Assembly: GCA_964617955.1 (NCBI GenBank)
Contig: CAZTXB010000010.1
Span: 1,771 to 65,770 of the forward strand
Direction: 5' to 3'
DNA length: 64,000 nt
Source: an uncultured Chitinophaga sp.
Lineage (GTDB): Bacteria > Bacteroidota > Bacteroidia > NS11-12g > UBA9320
Shown: positions 2 through 54,948 of the stretch, piece after piece
Position numbering within the stretch: position 1 is the first letter of the stretch
Layout: each line of letters starts with the position of its first letter
Notes under the pieces: generated by a model
Told to the model about the DNA's origin: nothing
Databases searched by the model: none
Seen by the model: only the letters and a program-made list of their open reading frames with translations
Program-made: the position numbers and the translations under genes

Positions 2-334
2 CAGAATTTTACCTTTAATGCCTGTGGCATCAGTCCTTTAAAGAAAGTTTTCGACTGCCAGGATGTATATGGAACAAAAGCTTCGCTTACAGATCTGGTT
101 CAGAACCGGGCATTACTGTCTCCCAATCCATGCTCCGAGGTATTGAATATTGCTGGATTAGAAGAAATGGATAAAGCAGCGTACTGTGTCATAATAGATT
201 TTGCCGGCAGGGAAGTGACGACACAGCCTTTAGGTGCAGGCAGCTTGTCGGTTTCCCATCTTAATTCAGGCTTATACCTTTTACAAATATTTTCACGCGG
301 TCAAGTTTATCAGCAAAAATTTGTGAAGCAATAA
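2..334 (+). CDS. C-terminal fragment of a secreted protein carrying a T9SS type A C-terminal sorting domain; 5' end lies outside the window
   Basis: Frame 2 is open from position 2 to the TAA at 332-334. The tail SPNPCSEVLNIAGLEE..YCVIIDFAGREV..LSVSHLNSGLYLLQI...QKFVKQ matches the T9SS type A (Por secretion) CTD pattern. The listed 143..334 ORF is only the part after an internal Met. Confidence 0.55.
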   Translation, partial: QNFTFNACGISPLKKVFDCQDVYGTKASLTDLVQNRALLSPNPCSEVLNIAGLEEMDKAAYCVIIDFAGREVTTQPLGAGSLSVSHLNSGLYLLQIFSRGQVYQQKFVKQ

Positions 335-528
335 TGTACTGGGATCAGTTATAAAGAGGTCATGAAACAACATTCTTGCCAAGGCAACGACAACATAAAA
401 CCTCTAACAACCGGTTCAATACCAAACGCTCATAGTTTAGGACTTAAAAAAGAAGTTTAGGCCATAAAATTCCGGATGAAAACCTAATGGACTTCAAGAT
501 TTTTTGTTGAAAAAAGGAGAAGTATCCT

Positions 529-27344: not shown

Positions 27345-27472
27345 ATACCAATGTGATTTACAGCATAGACAAATATTATGTAAATCATACCGTGGTAAAT
27401 GCCTGTGGATACAAATGTTTAGCACAAATTGGGAAACAAAAATTTGGGCTCTGACATTTATCCCATTGGTAG
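27345..27472. repeat. Copy B1 of a roughly 125-bp intergenic repeat family (ATACCAATG-like motifs at both ends and internally)
   Basis: Aligns by eye to 48033-48158, 28890-29010 and the minus-strand 49086-49209 (core ...TTATGTAAATnATnCnnTGGTAAATGCCnnTGGATACnAATGTTTAGnACAAAT...AAAATTTGG...CCAAT.GGTA). Ends are AATACCAATGTG / CCCATTGGTAG, so inverted. Confidence 0.6.
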
Positions 27473-28889: not shown

Positions 28890-29010
28890 CATGAGATTTA
28901 CATAATATTGCTATTTTGTAAATCTTACAGTGGTATATTCCCATAGCCATAAATGCTTAGGGCAAATTGAGGAAAGCACGTTTGAACCTATGCTTTTGTT
29001 CAATCGGTAT
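28890..29010. repeat. Copy B2 (more degenerate) of the roughly 125-bp repeat family
   Basis: ...TTTGTAAATCTTACAGTGGTATATTCCCATAGCCATAAATGCTTAGGGCAAATTGAGGAAAGCACGTTTGA...TTCAATCGGTAT aligns to the B1/B3 core. Left boundary unclear. Confidence 0.4.
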
Positions 29011-48032: not shown

Positions 48033-48158
48033 ATACCAATGGGGTTAATAAAAAATAGACATTATGTAAATTATGCATTGGTAAATGCCGATGGATACCA
48101 ATGTTTAGGACAAATAGAGGAACGAAAATTTGGACGATTACATTTGACCAATCGGTAT
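48033..48158. repeat. Copy B3 of the roughly 125-bp repeat family
   Basis: Ends ATACCAATGG (48033-48042) and ACCAATCGGTAT (48147-48158; reverse-complement ATACCGATTGGT). Internal inverted motif CATTGGTA...TACCAATG. It aligns to B1 and is the reverse complement of 49086-49209. Confidence 0.65.
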
Positions 48159-48187: not shown

Positions 48188-48934
48188 TTGGAAGCGCCCA
48201 TACAAAATAACATCGTTTTTGGCATAAGAGCCATCAGTGAAGCCATCCTTGCAGGTAAAAATTTTGATAAAATATTCATTAAGCAAGGTGGCAAAAGCCC
48301 TCTGGTTACCGAATTGTTGCAAATGGCCAGGGAGAAGGAAATCACACTCAAAATGGTACCTCAGGAAAAACTCGATGGCATTACCCGCAAAAACCATCAA
48401 GGGGCCATTGGCTTCATTGCTCCGGTGGTCTATCAAAATTATGAGGAAATTATCACCGGATGTTTCGAAAACGGTGTCGATCCTCTGATTCTGGTTTTGG
48501 ATGAAATAACGGATGTAAGGAATTTTGGCGCCATAGCCAGAACAGCATTGTGTATGGGTGTGCATGCCATTTTAATACCTTCCAATGGGTCGGTAACGGT
48601 AACTCCGGACGCCATAAAAACTAGCGCTGGTGCTTTGATGAGTTTACCCGTTTGTAAGGAGAAATCTCTGCCCATAGCCATTGAAAAAATGAAGGAATAC
48701 GGGCTCAAAGTCATAGGCTGTACAGAAAAGGGAAATGATGTGGTGGGTCAGCTCGACCTGTCAGGGCCTTTGGCCTTGGTGATGGGATCGGAAGAAAAAG
48801 GCCTTTCGCCTTTGATGCTGCGCTTGTCGGATAAGCTGGCCATGATTCCCATTTCAGGTCCCGTAAAGTCGCTTAACGTTTCGGTAGCTGCCGGTATGGT
48901 GCTTTATGAAATAGGGAAACAACGTATAGTTTAA
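48188..48934 (+). CDS. rlmB: TrmH-family (SpoU) RNA 2'-O-methyltransferase, RlmB-like (23S rRNA Gm2251)
   Basis: The N-terminal substrate-binding domain (IVFGIRAISEAILAG), SPOUT motifs (LVLDEITDVRNFGAIARTA, LVMGSEEKGLS, IPISGPVKSLNVSVAAG). Predicted TTG start; there is no in-frame ATG upstream. Confidence 0.8.
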   Translation: MEAPIQNNIVFGIRAISEAILAGKNFDKIFIKQGGKSPLVTELLQMAREKEITLKMVPQEKLDGITRKNHQGAIGFIAPVVYQNYEEIITGCFENGVDPLILVLDEITDVRNFGAIARTALCMGVHAILIPSNGSVTVTPDAIKTSAGALMSLPVCKEKSLPIAIEKMKEYGLKVIGCTEKGNDVVGQLDLSGPLALVMGSEEKGLSPLMLRLSDKLAMIPISGPVKSLNVSVAAGMVLYEIGKQRIV

Positions 48935-48938
48935 GTTA

Positions 48939-49302
48939 GGGCCTGCTTAAAAACACTTAAAGGCTTGATATGATTAGGTTCTCATTAGCTTTTATTTCTT
49001 TTAATGCACGATAAAATTGGTTAAGTATGAAAATGTTGTACTTCAAATGCCTTTATGAGGATGTTAGTTCATTGCACATGCATCACGCCGATTGGACAAA
49101 TGTAATAGTCCAAATTTCGTACCTCAATTTGCCCTAAACATTTGCATCCATCGGCATTTACCACTGTATGCTTTAAATAATATGGGTGTATCATGTAAAG
49201 CACATTGGTTTAACTTCGGCGGCTGCAGACTGAATTACGTCAAAGTACATCTGCGCTTTGCCGCCTCGTCCTGCATGCACACTGAACTTTTTCAGCAGGC
49301 CC
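48939..49302. mobile_element. Copy A1 of a MITE-like element: 15-bp terminal inverted repeats GGGCCTGCTtAAAAA ... TTTTTCAGCAGGCCC, TA on both flanks, 364 bp, with copy B4 nested inside
   Basis: Read directly. The left end and a 95-bp right arm are shared with 49827-50076 and 54613-54848. Flanking TA at 48937-48938 and 49303-49304. It begins 5 nt after the rlmB stop. Confidence 0.65.
49086..49209. repeat. Copy B4 of the roughly 125-bp repeat family, in inverted orientation, nested within MITE-like copy A1
   Basis: 49088-49209 is the reverse complement of the B3 core (GCCGATTGG ACAAATGTAAT.GTCCAAATTT...GCATTTACC...CACATTGGT). Copies A2 and A3 lack this segment at the corresponding point. Confidence 0.6.
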
Positions 49303-49313
49303 TAAATTACCAA

Positions 49314-49538
49314 CTACCCGTTTTCATTTTCTTCATCTTGTTCTTGTGGCTCCTCTTGTTGGCTGTTCCTCTCTCTTAATTTTTGTTTTACAACTTTGAT
49401 CACGTACCCCCCGCCAATGAGAACCAGCAGTACAAAAACAACGATGCCATAAACGACCCCTGTATCGTTCACGGAGGCTGTCCCTGCCAATGCGATGCTG
49501 CATAGAAAGAACAATGCCAACAATAATCCGGATTTCAT
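49314..49538 (-). CDS. Hypothetical small membrane protein (74 aa: signal/TM, second TM, acidic tail)
   Basis: MKSGLLLALFFLCSIALAG...VVYGIVVFVLLVLIGGGYVI...EEPQEQDEENENG. It sits in the repeat-rich island directly abutting A1. It could be a spurious ORF. Confidence 0.3.
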   Translation of the reverse strand: MKSGLLLALFFLCSIALAGTASVNDTGVVYGIVVFVLLVLIGGGYVIKVVKQKLRERNSQQEEPQEQDEENENG

Positions 49539-49826
49539 TTTTTTTAGCTTTAGTGCTAAACAAATGTAAACAACCCTTTTTAAAAATCAGCATTTATCTT
49601 TTCCCGTTTTAATCTCGTAGGTATTCCGCGGGGCCAACATTACCATCATAAGTTAGCGGGTCTCAGCAGCGAGCGAATGGTCAGCATTGTCGATTGATAC
49701 TCATCGAAAATTGCCAGACCATTGAGCAAAAGAAATAAAGAGTAACCCAAAAGTTATAGACTCTCTTTTTTTCGAATAATCATAAGCTGATTTTTTGTCC
49801 AAGTCGGGATGCATATCCCTAAATTA

Positions 49827-50076
49827 GGGCCTGCTGAAAAACACGCAAAAGCTTATGGTTATTATAGTTTGATACCATTATTATATAGGAGTGCAAAGCA
49901 TTACACCAAATAATACAAAATCCCTTGGATCTAAAGTTTCAAATCCAGCGTTAGTTCATTGCACGTCCCTTATACCGATTGGTAATACTTCGTCGGCTTC
50001 GGCTTGAGGTACGGCAAAGTACATCTTCGCCTTGCCTCCTTGTAATGAACGCACACTGAACTTTTTCAACAGGCCC
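49827..50076. mobile_element. Copy A2 of the MITE-like element (250 bp), TA-flanked
   Basis: Left GGGCCTGCTGAAAAACAC..., right ...GCACACTGAACTTTTTCAaCAGGCCC. TA at 49825-49826 and 50077-50078. It shares a right arm of about 95 bp with A1 and A3. 31 nt upstream of radA. Confidence 0.65.
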
Positions 50077-50107
50077 TAAAATAAATCACCTAATTTTGAT
50101 TCCGTAA

Positions 50108-51481
50108 ATGTCAAAATCCAAATCAAGTTTCTTCTGTCAAAACTGTGGAGCCTCTGCCGCAAAGTGGATTGGTAAATGCCCTGCCTGCGGGCAATGGAAT
50201 ACCTACCTTGAAGAGGTTATCATTAAAGACGATAAGACACCGGCCTGGAATATTGATTCAGAGGGCCATAAGCTCAAGCCATCCAAAAACAAACCAAAAA
50301 CTTTTGCCCAAATCGATGCCGTGAGCGAACTGAGATTCTCAGCACTTGACGGTGAGTTGAACCGAGTGCTTGGGGGAGGTATAGTGTCTGGAAGTTTGGT
50401 ATTGCTAGGAGGTGAACCGGGCATTGGCAAAAGTACCTTGCTGCTTCAGATGGCCGTAAAAAGCAAGCAGAAAGTTTTGTACTTATCGGGAGAAGAGAGT
50501 GAATCACAAATAAAAATGCGTGCTGAGCGCATAGGCATTCAAAATCAGGAGTGCTATATTTTATCGGCCACCAACATTCAATCTATTTTTCAGGTCATTA
50601 AAGAGCTGCAGCCGCAAATTGTAATCATTGATTCCATTCAAACCCTTTACACCAACTACATTGACTCTGCACCGGGAAGCATTTCCCAAATCAGAGAATG
50701 TGCTGCCGAATTTTTACGATTTGCCAAGGAAAGCAACACGCCTGTTTTTTTAATTGGCCATATCACCAAGGACGGGGTTATAGCTGGACCAAAGGTTTTG
50801 GAACACATGGTGGATACGGTTATACAGTTCGAAGGCGACCGTCACCATACCTACCGCATACTCCGATGCATCAAAAATCGTTTTGGCTCTTCTTCCGAAA
50901 TGGGCATTTATGAAATGCTCCCGAATGGTTTGAGGGAGGTTTCCAACCCAAGCGAAATTCTCATTACCCAACGCGATCAACCCCTTTCGGGTATCTCGAT
51001 TACCGCGGCCATTGAAGGCTTAAGACCCTTATTGGTAGAAACGCAGGCCTTAGTGAGCAGTGCAGTTTATGGTACGCCACAGCGAAATGCGAATGGTTTT
51101 GACCTAAAGCGCTTAAACATGTTACTGGCCGTACTCGAAAAGCGCTGCGGCTTTTTTTTGGGCACTCAGGATGTGTTTGTCAATATTGCCGGAGGTTTAA
51201 AACTCGAAGACCCTGCCTTGGATTTAGGCATCTCGCTAGCCATACTCTCCTCTTTCCACAATCATGTGGTAAACCCCGGAATTGCCTTTGCTGGTGAGAT
51301 TGGTTTGAGTGGTGAAATCAGGGCTGTTGGGAAAATTGACCAGCGCATTGGAGAAGCCGAAAAGCTGGGCTTTAAATCAATTGTTATTTCAAAGTTTAAT
51401 CAAAAGGGTTTAGGTAAATCGAAAATTGAGGTCATACCGGTGGCTAAGGTTGAAGATTGCCTTGATTTTATTTGGCTTTAA
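50108..51481 (+). CDS. radA: DNA repair protein RadA (Sms)
   Basis: N-terminal C4 zinc finger (FCQNCGASAAKWIGKCPACGQWNT), RecA-like Walker A GGEPGIGKSTLLLQ, KNRFG motif, and a C-terminal Lon-like domain. Confidence 0.95.
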   Translation: MSKSKSSFFCQNCGASAAKWIGKCPACGQWNTYLEEVIIKDDKTPAWNIDSEGHKLKPSKNKPKTFAQIDAVSELRFSALDGELNRVLGGGIVSGSLVLLGGEPGIGKSTLLLQMAVKSKQKVLYLSGEESESQIKMRAERIGIQNQECYILSATNIQSIFQVIKELQPQIVIIDSIQTLYTNYIDSAPGSISQIRECAAEFLRFAKESNTPVFLIGHITKDGVIAGPKVLEHMVDTVIQFEGDRHHTYRILRCIKNRFGSSSEMGIYEMLPNGLREVSNPSEILITQRDQPLSGISITAAIEGLRPLLVETQALVSSAVYGTPQRNANGFDLKRLNMLLAVLEKRCGFFLGTQDVFVNIAGGLKLEDPALDLGISLAILSSFHNHVVNPGIAFAGEIGLSGEIRAVGKIDQRIGEAEKLGFKSIVISKFNQKGLGKSKIEVIPVAKVEDCLDFIWL

Positions 51482-51487
51482 ATTCTT

Positions 51488-54400
51488 TTACTTTCTAATT
51501 AAAGTGACCGTTCCAGAAAACAGGGGCTTTATTTTTTTTGAAAGGCCCTTGTATTCGGCAATATAAAAATAGGTTCCTTCAGGGCATTCTTTCACTCCGT
51601 TGTTAACTTTACCATTCCAACATTCACTCATGTCTCTGGTCTCAAACATTTTTTGACCCCAGCGGTTATAGATGCTTATTTTAATTTTTGAACATTCGTT
51701 TAAGCCCCCGTCAAATTGAAAACAATCGTTGATGCCATCTCCATCGGGTGTGAAAACATTGCTGGGCACCAACTGATCAACTGGAATTCCCTTGATCTCG
51801 ATAGGATAAATGACCGTATCGGGGCATTGCTTCAGCCGATCGGTAATGAGGCGAACATAATAGATGCCCGCCTTTGTAAATTCATGAGGATCGGGATCAA
51901 TGGATTCGGTAAAGGTGCTGTCTCCAAAATTCCATAAGACGGTTTCAAAATGCCCACTTTTGTTTTTAAAGCTCACAGCATTCGAACATTCTTCTTTCAC
52001 CATTTCGAAATCGGCTTCGCTTCTTTGTAATACATTGACAATACCGCTACTCGAGTCGCTCACATTACAGGTACTCGAATCGGTGGAGATAAGAGAAATT
52101 TTATACTGACCGACTTTTGGAAAACTGTGTTTGGGGTGTTTTTCGATAGAGCTGTTGCCATCTCCAAAATCCCAGTATGAATTGATTTTCCCCTGGCTCA
52201 AATTGGTAAACTGAACATCTGTTGGCCCGCAGGCCACCGCATCGGGTATAAACCTGGCCTCTACCAGATGGTTAATTTGAAAATCGATTTTAAACGCTGC
52301 ATTGCTGCACCGCCAACTCACATTTTTTGGAAAAGCAGCGTTGGAGGAAGTGGGAAAGTCGTTCAATGTATTGCCAGGGGTGTTTGGGCAGCTAGAACAA
52401 ACCGACTGATAGATAATTCCTCGCTTGTCGAATCGGCTGGTGCCCCCATCCACATGGTCTTCAGACTGATTGCCTCCATAATAGGTGGCGTAAAGCAAGC
52501 CATATAAATTTTTGCTGAATACGGCCAAATAAAAGTCGTTTCCATCTGTACTTGCCTGCAAGGCATTAGAAGTGATTGGTAAACCGTTGGTGGTTCCCGG
52601 CCTTCCGAGGTTAGACCCCCATCCCGACAGGTAAATATTTCCGCACGAATCTACCAAAAACGCTGATGGCGAGAGTTCCGGCACATGTGGTCTTGCGCCG
52701 AATACGGTTTGTCTTTTCACCTGACTCAGAGAGTTGTCGGCGATAAAAATAAATTGGCCGGTTTTTGCTTTGTTGCTGTAGGCTCCATTAGAGGCTACAA
52801 TTTCGCCAGTGGTTTGCCCCGTTCCATAAACATTACCCAATTTATCGATTTCTAAAAAATAAATCTGATCGTATGTTGATGTTCCGTAGTAAGTGGCCCT
52901 GGTAAGCGCAAACGTTTGTTGGTCGAAAGAAGCCATAAAACCATCGGTCCCTCCGTTTCTGTTTTTGTTAATCGCCGAGGTATGGGTAGGTAAATTATCG
53001 CTTTGTGTTCCTCCGGCTACAAAAATATTTTCATCCTTATCGAACTCCAAGCTGTAAATCCCATCGCTGGCATTGCCTCCAAAATAGGTGGCCCATAGCA
53101 ATTGATCTAAATTTTTTGAAAACTTCAGACAGAGACCGTCGGCCGTTCCGCCAAGTGTTGATTGAAAGGCGTTTTTTAAAGGAATGTCCTTTGAGTTGGT
53201 AGTGCTTACCACATAAATATTGTCGCCTTTGTCGGTAAGCACCTCTCCTCTGAAATCATCGGCGTAGTTGTATTTTAGGTCCTTATCGGTAAGACCATCA
53301 TGGCTGCTTCCGCCAAAAAAGGTGGAGGCCAAAAGTTGGTCGCCCCATTTCGATAATTTAAACACCACGATATCGGTCAATGTATCGCTGCTGGAATAGC
53401 TGTTGTGGGTGGTGTCAAAGGCATTTGGGGTGACCGGAAAATTCTTCGAATAGGAAGTGCCGAAAACCACCAGCTCCGAATCTCTGTTCACCACCATGCT
53501 GTGGGGGTAATCATCGTCGGCTCCTCCAACATAGGTGGCATAGATTAAATTTTTACCTGACGAATCGTACTTGGATATAGTAATGTCAGATGGCAGGTTT
53601 ACCGGATCTCTGCCTAAACCCCCGGCCCAGTTTATTTGAAACGCACCGGTACTTACTGGATACTCGCCTTGGGAGTTATCTGTTGCCCCACCGGCATATA
53701 AATTTCCTCTGGAATCGTAAGTGGCTGTAAAACCAAAATTATCCCCTCTCGATCCTGAATAGGTTGAGAAAACGAGAATGGGGTCGATCACCAGTTCATA
53801 TTCGGGGTTGTAACCATTGTGAAATTGGTAGGATATGATATTTCCATCTAGACGGTAAACACAAGAGATTCCTTTAGGATGCAATTCTTTGCGATCGTTG
53901 CTGTTTTGCCACACCAGTAAATTCTGATCCGAGACAATGCCGATGGCTGTTTTGAGCAAAAGCGAATTATTTTTCACTTCTATGGAATCCAGCCCTTGAA
54001 GCTTTATGCGAATTAAGTCCGGATTCGCCCCAGGACTCACAAGCCACTCGTACTTTATTTGTCCAAATTTAGAAAATACCCTGAGTTTAATGCCCGGGTA
54101 GATGTTTTCATACACCACTTCTGAAAATAAATTCACATTGGAGGCCCACTTCGATCGGTCGTTACCAAGAAAATAATTGTGTTTTTGAAAAAAGGGTTTA
54201 ACACCAATGACCGCCGGATTGGCTTCTCCATTCAGAAAGACATATCTGAAGCTATGTCCATGAACCACTGGGTTTGTGGGTAAATTCTCTTTATGCAGAT
54301 GTTGGTGCGAAGCCTGGTACTCCGATTCTTTAAAAAGCTTAAAGGTTATGGCATTTTTTTCTAAGAAAACATAACCGCAATTTACCTGTACCCTGTACAG

Positions 54401-54520
54401 TACCTGTTTCTCAAATTGCCCCTTGTTTTCTACAAACTGTAAATCATCCTCCGTTTGGGCCATGCACAGCATGGGGCTGATGAAAAAAATGAAAACACAA
54501 TATTTGAAAAAATTCCTCAA
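51488..54520 (-). CDS. Large secreted protein with an N-terminal SBBP/beta-propeller region, PKD-like domains and a T9SS type B (gliding-motility-associated) C-terminal sorting domain
   Basis: 1010 aa, signal peptide. N-terminal FVENKGQF...VFL.K motif, repeated YATYFGG/ATYVGG beta-propeller repeats, WDFGDG PKD motifs. The C-terminus ...PNVFTPDGDGINDCF...YNRWGQKMFE...GTVTLIRK matches the type B CTD. Confidence 0.85.
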   Translation of the reverse strand: MRNFFKYCVFIFFISPMLCMAQTEDDLQFVENKGQFEKQVLYRVQVNCGYVFLEKNAITFKLFKESEYQASHQHLHKENLPTNPVVHGHSFRYVFLNGEANPAVIGVKPFFQKHNYFLGNDRSKWASNVNLFSEVVYENIYPGIKLRVFSKFGQIKYEWLVSPGANPDLIRIKLQGLDSIEVKNNSLLLKTAIGIVSDQNLLVWQNSNDRKELHPKGISCVYRLDGNIISYQFHNGYNPEYELVIDPILVFSTYSGSRGDNFGFTATYDSRGNLYAGGATDNSQGEYPVSTGAFQINWAGGLGRDPVNLPSDITISKYDSSGKNLIYATYVGGADDDYPHSMVVNRDSELVVFGTSYSKNFPVTPNAFDTTHNSYSSSDTLTDIVVFKLSKWGDQLLASTFFGGSSHDGLTDKDLKYNYADDFRGEVLTDKGDNIYVVSTTNSKDIPLKNAFQSTLGGTADGLCLKFSKNLDQLLWATYFGGNASDGIYSLEFDKDENIFVAGGTQSDNLPTHTSAINKNRNGGTDGFMASFDQQTFALTRATYYGTSTYDQIYFLEIDKLGNVYGTGQTTGEIVASNGAYSNKAKTGQFIFIADNSLSQVKRQTVFGARPHVPELSPSAFLVDSCGNIYLSGWGSNLGRPGTTNGLPITSNALQASTDGNDFYLAVFSKNLYGLLYATYYGGNQSEDHVDGGTSRFDKRGIIYQSVCSSCPNTPGNTLNDFPTSSNAAFPKNVSWRCSNAAFKIDFQINHLVEARFIPDAVACGPTDVQFTNLSQGKINSYWDFGDGNSSIEKHPKHSFPKVGQYKISLISTDSSTCNVSDSSSGIVNVLQRSEADFEMVKEECSNAVSFKNKSGHFETVLWNFGDSTFTESIDPDPHEFTKAGIYYVRLITDRLKQCPDTVIYPIEIKGIPVDQLVPSNVFTPDGDGINDCFQFDGGLNECSKIKISIYNRWGQKMFETRDMSECWNGKVNNGVKECPEGTYFYIAEYKGLSKKIKPLFSGTVTLIRK

Positions 54521-54612
54521 CAGCGATTTAATATCAAAGTTACGACAATACCCTTGAATTAGACAAGATGGCTACCAAAAGTGTTGCATTGAAAGGAGAT
54601 AAACCGTACCTA

Positions 54613-54848
54613 GGGCCTGCTGAAAAACACTTAAAGGCTTGATATGATGAGGTTCATTAAAAATTTTATTGCTTTTAATGCACGATAAAATTAGTGAACC
54701 ATGAAAATATCGTGCATCGAATGCCTTCAGAAAGACGTTAGTTCATTGCACGTCCCTTACTTCGTCGGCTTCGGCTCGAGGTACGGCAAAGTACATCTTC
54801 GCCTTGCCTCCTTGTAATGAACGCACACTGAACTTTTTCAGCAAGCCC
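54613..54848. mobile_element. Copy A3 of the MITE-like element (236 bp), TA-flanked
   Basis: Left GGGCCTGCTGAAAAACACTTAAAGGCTTGATATGAT (identical to A1 over about 38 bp), right ...CTTTTTCAGCAaGCCC. TA at 54611-54612 and 54849-54850. Lies between the T9SS-substrate gene and the cco operon tail. Confidence 0.65.
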
Positions 54849-54948
54849 TACCTACCAAAAAACCACAAAAGGAGGGTTATTTGCAGATTCAAAAAGCGCT
54901 TCTATGACGTGAAGTAGAGCCTGTTAACAATGCGTTGTTTAGCACACC

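Follow-up and report, generated by a model that had tools for sequence, protein, structure and literature searches.

Three copies of a short repeat, which we call A1, A2 and A3, lie in intergenic spacers of the 64-kb stretch of DNA analysed here (the window), and according to our analysis they are most probably miniature transposable elements with inverted repeats (MITEs), that is, non-autonomous derivatives of an insertion sequence (IS) of the ISMae6 type from the IS5 family, mobilised by the transposase of such an IS. This degree of belief refers to the identity of the copies and to the model of their mobility, and not to the function of the hairpin, called the rod below, which they carry beside one end.

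The 17-nt end of the copies, TAGGGCCTGCTGAAAAA, is matched six times in the window with at most one mismatch, and the six matches make three inverted pairs; shuffled sequence gives 0.47 matches on expectation, and 0 of 100 shuffles reached six. Every copy has a 17-nt terminal inverted repeat (TIR) with 0-1 mismatch, and all three are non-coding and stand in identical orientation. No transposase-sized open reading frame (ORF) was found inside A1, A2 or A3, and the ORFs that do occur in them, of 44-95 aa only, are not conserved between the copies. The three TIR-bounded, non-coding copies with shared arms that had been described in an earlier note on this DNA are therefore real. The copies and their parts are listed here (coordinates of the copies include the terminal TA; IRL and IRR stand for the left and the right inverted repeat).

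48937..49304, minus strand: A1, 368 bp, MITE with a nested element of repeat family B
48937..48953, plus strand: TIR of A1 at the IRL end (transposase-5' end of the IS), TAGGGCCTGCTTAAAAA, 1 mismatch
49288..49304, minus strand: TIR of A1 at the hairpin-side (IRR-like) end, 0 mismatches
49212..49288, minus strand: rod hairpin of A1, 5' part, as far as the B insertion point
49086..49211, minus strand: nested B copy in the A1 rod, at the TA of GAAGTA/AGGG; the forward strand of B is the window minus strand
49066..49085, minus strand: rod hairpin of A1, 3' portion
49825..50078, minus strand: A2, 254 bp
49953..50062, minus strand: rod hairpin of A2, 97% identical to the right arm of A3, interrupted at 49971-49985
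49888..49899, plus strand: subterminal box of A2, GGAGTGCAAAGC, 64-75 nt from the IRL-like end; counterpart of the AAGTGCAAGG box of the IS
54611..54850, minus strand: A3, 240 bp, the cleanest copy
54740..54834, minus strand: rod hairpin of A3, the conserved module of ~96 nt; the folding strand is the window minus strand; 126 bits to covariance model R1
54677..54718, minus strand: second hairpin of A3, GATGCACGATA...TATCGTGCATT; the diverged subterminal box forms its 3' arm
54611..54627, plus strand: TIR of A3 at the IRL-like end, 0 mismatches
54834..54850, minus strand: TIR of A3 at the hairpin side, 1 mismatch

Common to all three copies are a left arm of 35 nt and a right arm of 93 nt, at 81-97% identity. 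The earlier note had read them as elements with conserved ends and a diverged interior, of which the shared arms stand, but the right arm is more than a conserved end, being a structured module with strong covariation, and this had been understated. As to the interior, divergence holds for the central segment of A2, the only one that differs, whereas A1 and A3 are alike from end to end (150 nt at 81%) except for a 126-nt insert in A1.

Partner insertion sequence, target site and mobility

The search for related elements was made in two ways: genomes, one per species, were scanned for the TIR, and metagenome contigs were scanned with a pattern of the rod core only, which has no TIR in it; all counts from both scans are lower bounds. 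The TIR 17-mer ends at least 95 stretches (matched loci are cited below by L numbers), almost all of them from Bacteroidota, and the carriers among the matches listed belong to Bacteroidales, Marinilabiliales, Cytophagales, Flavobacteriales, Sphingobacteriia and the Saprospiria-like Aureispira. Many of these stretches are found at the ends of contigs, and in several genomes there are at least 3-9 loci each. Pairing of the TIRs in the genome scan gave at least about 35 short elements of 137-490 bp and at least 5 elements of 1.64-1.69 kb. In many genomes and metagenomes of Bacteroidota, elements that share these ends and the internal module are found between genes unrelated to one another, with target duplications, which agrees with the earlier view of the copies as non-autonomous elements in spacers; by their small size, within the usual range of about 50-1000 bp, the absence of a transposase ORF, the TIRs and the target duplication they are MITEs as these are defined in prokaryotes.

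A full-length IS with matching TIRs and an intact transposase of 524 aa does exist (L055, 1482-3129), but its family is IS5, and not IS630/Tc1-mariner to which the copies had been ascribed. The transposase scores 376 bits against NCBIfam NF033578 (IS5 family; cut-off 275) and matches Pfam DUF772 and DDE_Tnp_1_2, there are no IS630 models among its profile matches, and its nearest named relatives, found in plasmid records, are ISMae6 and ISAcma17 at ~46% identity. A copy of ISMae6 ends in TTAAT-TAGGGTTTGCTGAATAA...TTTTTCAGCAAACCCTA-ATTAA, that is, in TA-AT-TAGGGTTTGCTGAA...CAGCAAACCCTA-AT-TA.

When MITE and IS are compared by BLAST, only the TIR matches, and the rod and the remaining interior are unrelated. 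In most MITEs a box A(A/G)GTGCAAGG stands at 64-69 nt from the tip, as it does in 4 of 6 IS copies (76 nt in the 2 others), and in the IS the AAGTGCAAGG box stands 4-5 nt before the transposase ATG. Collinearity with the transposase-proximal IS end extends over the distal ~75 nt of the MITE, those opposite the right arm, and takes in both the TIR and the box. Since they have nothing but the TIR and the subterminal box in common with the IS, the window elements would be intermediate between type I and type II MITEs as defined in PMC10969869.

Some variation of these elements is worth mentioning. In a Cyclobacteriaceae/Algoriphagus subgroup (L034, L052, L072, L073, L011 and L022; distal third) the box is 88-90 nt from the end, ~21 nt further in, and an internal TIR-like CTTGCTGAAAAA stands beside the AAGTGCAAGG box, which may be a second binding site for the transposase. 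Other non-autonomous derivatives with these TIRs include an internal deletion with the N-terminus of the transposase retained (L068, 489 bp), elements carrying other nested palindromes, and minimal rod-less elements of 137-138 bp (L004, 2799-2935; L092, 1152-1289) with the same TIRs and the subterminal box, which are either the ancestral form or precise deletions of the hairpin. Exact TIR matches were also met in metagenome-assembled genomes (MAGs) labelled Acidaminococcaceae, Rhodobacterales, Heimdallarchaeota, Oscillospiraceae and Trichodesmium (L017, L018, L023, L069, L086), mostly on short contigs, and they may reflect binning contamination or a genuine wider spread; L086 has a TIR-bounded element of 1105 bp whose internal type is different. 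A single match came from 2.9 million viral contigs, a TIR-bounded, rod-less element of 270 bp (L218, 7270-7539, IMG/VR), likewise not of the internal type of the window copies.

Across the elements the flanks follow the architecture TA-NN-[TAGGG...CCCTA]-NN-TA. The 2-nt flanks are identical in 25 of 42 genome elements and in 55 of 77 elements of an independent metagenome sample; of the 101 elements in a non-redundant set, 66 carry a duplication of 2 nt (60 in full TA-NN-TA) and 10 one of 3 nt, whereas permuting the flanks yields 13 duplications on average and 22 at most. At positions -4/-3 and +3/+4, 81-90% of elements have T/A, and several elements lack the outer TA on one side while the 2-nt duplication is kept, which favours the terminal TA as a part of the element and TA-NN-TA as a target preference. 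A decayed IS copy (L033, 4525-6183) interrupts an alpha/beta-hydrolase gene in a Prolixibacteraceae MAG; in silico removal of the IS with one AT restores a hydrolase ORF of 265 aa, with Pfam matches spanning the junction, whereas after removal of the core plus one TA, as a TA-only model has it, the frameshift remains. To judge by these flanks and this junction, the duplicated target is 2 (sometimes 3) nt outside the terminal TA, and not the TA which the earlier note had taken for the target-site duplication. Within the window the flanks of A3 are perfect, with CC at 54609-54610 and 54851-54852 and the outer TA at 54607-54608 and 54853-54854.

There are points that count against the reading of the three copies as mobile IS5-type MITEs. 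The flanks of the two other copies are imperfect 3-nt duplications with 1 mismatch each, TA-AGT-[element]-AAT-TA in A1 (where the outer left TA, 48932-48933, is a part of the rlmB stop codon) and TA-AAT-[element]-AAA-TA in A2. No empty sites were recovered for the window copies; the predicted empty site of A3, GATAAACCGTACCTACCAAAAAACC, with a single TA-CC-TA, has no exact match in metagenome contigs, and likewise none was found there for GTACCTACCTACC, the empty site under TA-only duplication. The autonomous IS5-type partner was not seen within the window and is known from other Bacteroidota, so mobilisation in trans in the source organism is what we infer.

The two alternatives to this reading fare much worse. 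For IS630/Tc1-mariner-type MITEs with TA target-site duplication speaks the TA that brackets every copy, and duplication of TA is a hallmark of that superfamily. This attribution is hardly tenable, since the sole transposase found between these TIRs is of the IS5 family, the duplicated bases lie outside the TA in the 66 and 10 elements counted above and persist at two nt in several elements where one outer TA is gone, the interrupted hydrolase gene is frameshifted by the TA-only model and restored by the 2-nt one, and the curated IS5-family ISMae6 has the same end context, TA-AT-TAGGG. Very unlikely, too, are immobile ancestral genes of structured non-coding RNA (ncRNA), or regulatory spacers, with inverted repeats that are incidental. 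They would suit a rod that covaries in a strand-specific way, the existence of two rod homologues with no TIR (L163 and L140), one of which is followed by an intrinsic terminator, and the failure to recover an empty site; but the TIR stands at a fixed distance in 101 of 110 rod hits among the matches listed, the neighbour genes are unrelated in many taxa and the 2-3-nt duplications individual, assemblies break at the elements, the TIR and the subterminal box are common to the autonomous IS, no promoter is conserved, and divergent spacers, which contain promoters, are depleted of elements (2/39).

We propose, from the anatomy of the elements and from what is known of the family, that a co-resident IS of ~1.65 kb would supply the DDE transposase in trans, and that this enzyme would bind the shared TIRs and insert the element into TA-NN-TA targets, duplicating the central 2 (sometimes 3) bp.

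The rod hairpin and its possible roles

Read on the window minus strand, an element begins with the 17-nt TIR, followed by the rod of ~96 nt, which starts from the last TIR base, and a short linker; then come a second hairpin, with the complement of the AAGTGCAAGG box as its 3' arm, ~50 nt of AT-rich sequence and the other TIR. The right arm is matched by 8 elements of other families and orders at 70-81% identity, with compensatory changes visible by eye, and the rod as such was found in more than 130 elements from many Bacteroidota of several orders.

The first alignment, of 11 sequences, was made with MAFFT independently of structure, the B insert having been taken out of A1 and A2 by hand, and RNAalifold gave for it 34 pairs in total, 14 of them changed on both sides; the rod makes up 31 pairs (columns 17-112). 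The covariance model R1, built from this alignment, has ~31 strong and ~25 weaker matches in the genome loci, where 91.7% of cells are paired, double changes occur at 28 of the 31 pairs, and the covariation score is 0.33, against 0.03-0.07 with the partners slid by 1-3 columns. In the metagenome loci, an independent set, R1 matched 100 of the 100 searched; 95.4% of cells are paired, double changes occur at 22 of 31 pairs (one helix being fixed by the search pattern), and the score is 0.41, with at most 0.08 in slid controls. These large alignments were fitted to the model; most matches, however, are ungapped over 125 nt, and the slid controls are low. Among the matches listed 110 metagenome rod hits could be judged, and the TIR is upstream at exactly 55 nt in 96 of them and at 56-68 nt in 5.

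G-U pairs stand to A-C as 95:4 in the genome set and as 283:18 in the metagenome set, so that the complement strand would pair ~10 points worse. For A3 the folding energy is -86.8 kcal/mol with the minus strand and -75.5 with the plus strand, and shuffled sequence lies far above either value. The internal loops are purine-rich (GA/GA, AA/GAA twice, GAA/GA) and conserved in the set whose selection did not involve the rod sequence, and many rod sequences have conserved tandem U-G/G-U pairs. The rod is shown to have been under long-term selection as the single-stranded fold of one strand, the window minus; one strand, because G-U so far outnumbers A-C.

The rod is absent from all copies of the IS: R1 finds nothing there, and the transposase stop codon is 18 nt from the IS end. 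It is thus not required for the action of the transposase, and its conservation in the MITEs, in spite of its absence from the transposase-encoding parent, means selection on something other than transposase recognition. In the rod-less L004 and L092 the junction GAAAA/CTAAC is exact where rod-bearing elements read GAAAA-[rod]-CTAAC, so the rod is an addition to a simpler element or was lost from it; in the TIR-anchored sample rod-bearing elements are far commoner than rod-less ones. Two IS variants, L077 and L096, have a terminator-like hairpin at an equivalent place and of the same polarity as the rod.

Rod homologues with no TIR were seen at L163 (7227-7325, plus strand, 61.9 bits to R1) and at L140 (~250-374, minus strand, 40.5 bits), in the common frame CACGAA-rod-TTCGYCCCTTGCGG. 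That of L163 lies between a gene for an Mrp-like ATPase and trpA, and after it comes an intrinsic terminator with the same polarity. The pair may represent a free-standing RNA gene akin to the rod, or else decayed elements.

No described RNA family was recognised: at gathering scores no family of Rfam 15 was reached in the whole window, and a permissive search (E<=10) of the elements, of a typical rod (L063) and of L163 gave nothing meaningful. An origin from an RNA of the signal recognition particle (SRP), of the 4.5S type, to which the 3' strand bears some resemblance by eye (...GCAGCCAAGGCAGAUG...), was dropped, as no SRP model matched. A small ORF of the right arm (AAGGAGG and ATG, 17 codons, minus strand) was rejected as well, the ATG being CTG in several homologues and the peptides not conserved, while the stems covary.

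What the rod does is a different question, and our answer is tentative. We suggest that it would act in cis, as a structure in transcripts running into the element from its hairpin-side end, for instance by processing or insulating such read-in transcription, and that it would help rod-bearing lineages to persist and to out-proliferate rod-less ones. This cis-acting RNA is our best guess, held with low certainty; a strand-specific signal in single-stranded DNA (ssDNA) is less probable, an RNA acting in trans or as antisense less probable again, and more weight than on any of these is to be put on the chance that the rod has some other role or none. The evidence supports a rod that benefits the non-autonomous lineage and does not serve transposase recognition, that acts as a single strand of fixed polarity, and that does so independently of host-gene context. 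RNA is favoured because of the tandem U-G/G-U pairs, the conserved loops with covarying stems and the terminator after L163.

Several results, all from the elements and their surroundings, tell against an RNA. The Bacteroidota-type -7 box (TAnnTTTG, strict or with 1 mismatch) has no positional enrichment on either strand; sigma-70-type promoters and intrinsic terminators within the elements are at chance level, which also gives no support to the outward promoters or terminators that the earlier note had considered; and no U tract follows the rod. Relative to neighbouring genes, neither orientation of the rod strand is preferred (tandem 10 vs 11), and the coding bases on the same and on the opposite strand amount to 314 kb vs 306 kb; long ORFs alone served to judge gene orientation. 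That neither a promoter nor an orientation bias was seen is a real weakness of the RNA reading, and a G-T wobble is tolerated in ssDNA hairpins too. Elements are depleted in divergent spacers, as said above, and enriched in convergent ones (16/39), as expected of insertions that survive or are tolerated.

It would be logical to consider in this connection that the rod works as ssDNA, for example on a replication or repair intermediate, and aids the non-autonomous element in recruiting the transposase or in its own processing. The fixed position of the rod against the TIR, the want of a promoter together with random orientation relative to transcription, the need for strand-specific folding and the predominance of rod-bearing elements in the TIR-anchored sample all suit this idea; DDE transposases of this superfamily, however, act on double-stranded ends, the autonomous IS transposes with no rod, conserved tandem U-G/G-U pairs, like internal loops rich in purines, are features typical of an RNA, gene strand (a proxy for replication direction) shows no bias, and the terminator after the TIR-less L163 has the same polarity, so we regard it as rather unlikely. 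More improbable is a trans-acting antisense RNA in which the rod is a stable 5' scaffold and the following CCUUGCACUU pairs with AAGUGCAAGG just upstream of the transposase start of the IS, so that MITE copies would modulate transposase translation. The box is indeed conserved in MITEs and stands just before the ATG in the IS copies, and the polarity of the rod, on the G-U evidence, is antisense to the transposase direction, but the complementarity is fully explained by the collinear homology of the MITE and IS ends, the box is tied up in the second hairpin's stem, there is no promoter upstream of the rod, and in A1 and A3 the box has diverged.

Returning to the rod as RNA, one may even think of the ~96-nt rod as a functional RNA module spread across Bacteroidota by the MITE, a bacterial counterpart of the RNA-bearing short interspersed elements (SINEs), a possibility which we entertain with more doubt than belief. 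If this is true, the module would act for the element, on read-in transcription or on the parent transposase, or for the host, as a protein-binding or regulatory RNA at many loci, and L163 and L140, devoid of TIR, would be its free-standing gene form.

Neighbouring genes, mosaic copies and the nested repeat family B

The genes beside the copies, given as radA and rlmB in the earlier note, proved to be so. RlmB is encoded at 48188-48934, and A1 begins 2 nt past its stop codon; RadA is encoded at 50108-51481, and the hairpin-side end of A2 is 29 nt upstream of its ATG. The gene after radA encodes a protein with a sorting domain of the type IX secretion system (T9SS), which places the source organism in Bacteroidota. 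Direct repeats CCTCCAnAATAGGTGGC... at 52469-52513, 53072-53116 and 53523-53542, spaced by 603 and 447 nt, fall within the gene of a T9SS-sorted protein of 1010 aa (51488-54520, minus strand) and are probably repeated protein domains.

The central ~95 nt of A2 (49888-49970, compared with 54640-54735 of A3) are unrelated to A3, despite the 97% identical right arm, and the centre of A1 matches A3 (81%), yet its right arm is the most diverged one (81%). The copies are therefore mosaics, which points to gene conversion or recombination among subfamilies within a single genome. The three copies lie within 6 kb of the window. A contig of 4598 bp from an independent short-read assembly (L001, Logan SRR7369912) corresponds to ~50039-54636 of the window, starting inside A2 and ending inside A3, and this break of the assembly at two of the repeats is consistent with further copies in that genome.

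A1 is longer than the other copies because an element of a second repeat family, B, is nested in it, the excess being the 126-nt insert at 49086-49211. B elements are ~120-130 bp long, with termini TACCAATG...CAATCGGTA and two internal hairpins, and their forward strand folds better than the reverse. Three of them stand alone in the window:

27345-27471, plus strand: B1
28895-29009, plus strand: B2
48040..48157, plus strand: B3, between a terminator and rlmB, related to the A1 insert

At the point where B is inserted in A1, A2 has a 15-nt remnant, TTACCAATCGGTATA (49971-49985), which looks like two B termini collapsed onto the repeated CCAAT, and A3 is uninterrupted (GAAGTA/AGGG). The presence of B in A1 and of its putative remnant in A2, set against its absence from A3, amounts to a comparison of filled and empty sites and suggests that B may be mobile and TA-targeting. 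Weak B-like matches were seen in L028 and L074.

Significance and comparison with known systems

The fold of the rod is kept by compensatory change and by a strand-specific tolerance of G-U, it is absent from the parent IS, and it matches no described RNA family. Cultured carriers exist (Marinilabilia rubra WTE16, M. salmonicolor JCM 21150, Anaerophaga thermohalophila, Anditalea andensis LY1), so the benefit of the module to a non-autonomous element is directly testable. The TIR, the TA-NN-TA rule and the covariance model permit annotation of these repeats, which visibly break short-read assemblies, and elements lie directly against genes, such as radA and rlmB in the window. A literature search for the TIR string found no paper, and one on MITEs of Bacteroidota found the elements of Porphyromonas gingivalis and Cardinium, which have different TIRs.

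The closest known relatives are the IS5 elements of the ISMae6/ISAcma17 type from cyanobacteria. Their TIR is nearly the same (TAGGGTTTGCTGAA in ISMae6 vs TAGGGCCTGCTGAA here), the TA-NN-TA context is shared with ISMae6, and the DDE transposase of the IS relatives in Bacteroidota, such as L055, is the ~46% identical IS5-family enzyme described above. Unlike these IS, the window elements are of 240-368 bp, encode no transposase and have the 96-nt hairpin in addition.

Among non-autonomous elements, BrickBuilt and MITEPgRS/MITE464 of P. gingivalis and ATR of Neisseria are intergenic and have TIRs that match resident IS5-family elements (PMC4596501). BrickBuilt, MITEPgRS and ATR are thus similar to the window family in being non-autonomous, with IS5-matching TIRs and an interior unrelated to the transposase gene, a class of the 'type II' kind in the terms of PMC10969869. 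BrickBuilt's and MITEPgRS's TIRs, however, are GAGACC..., and their interiors are tandem direct repeats, unlike those of the window family; and the host range of BrickBuilt, MITEPgRS and ATR is one species or genus, whereas the window family spans several orders.

ERIC and Correia elements are, like ours, small TIR-bounded repeats of spacers; they are co-transcribed with their neighbours, and their structure matters at the RNA level. Compensatory evolution in ERIC is said to have been noticed by Wilson & Sharp in 2006. The transcripts of ERIC and Correia elements form folds that RNase E / RNase III cleave (PMC10969869). In these elements the fold is made by the two arms of the whole element, the duplication is of TA, and there is no known partner transposase; in the window family, by contrast, the structure is a local module beside one end, the partner IS family has been identified, and 2-3 nt are duplicated outside the TA. 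Many structured ncRNAs are, like the module, rod-like hairpins with conserved purine-rich internal loops, and in the searches described above no family of Rfam 15 matched it. MITEs derived from IS5 were thus already known, and what is unusual here is a well-supported structured module combined with a wide phylogenetic spread.

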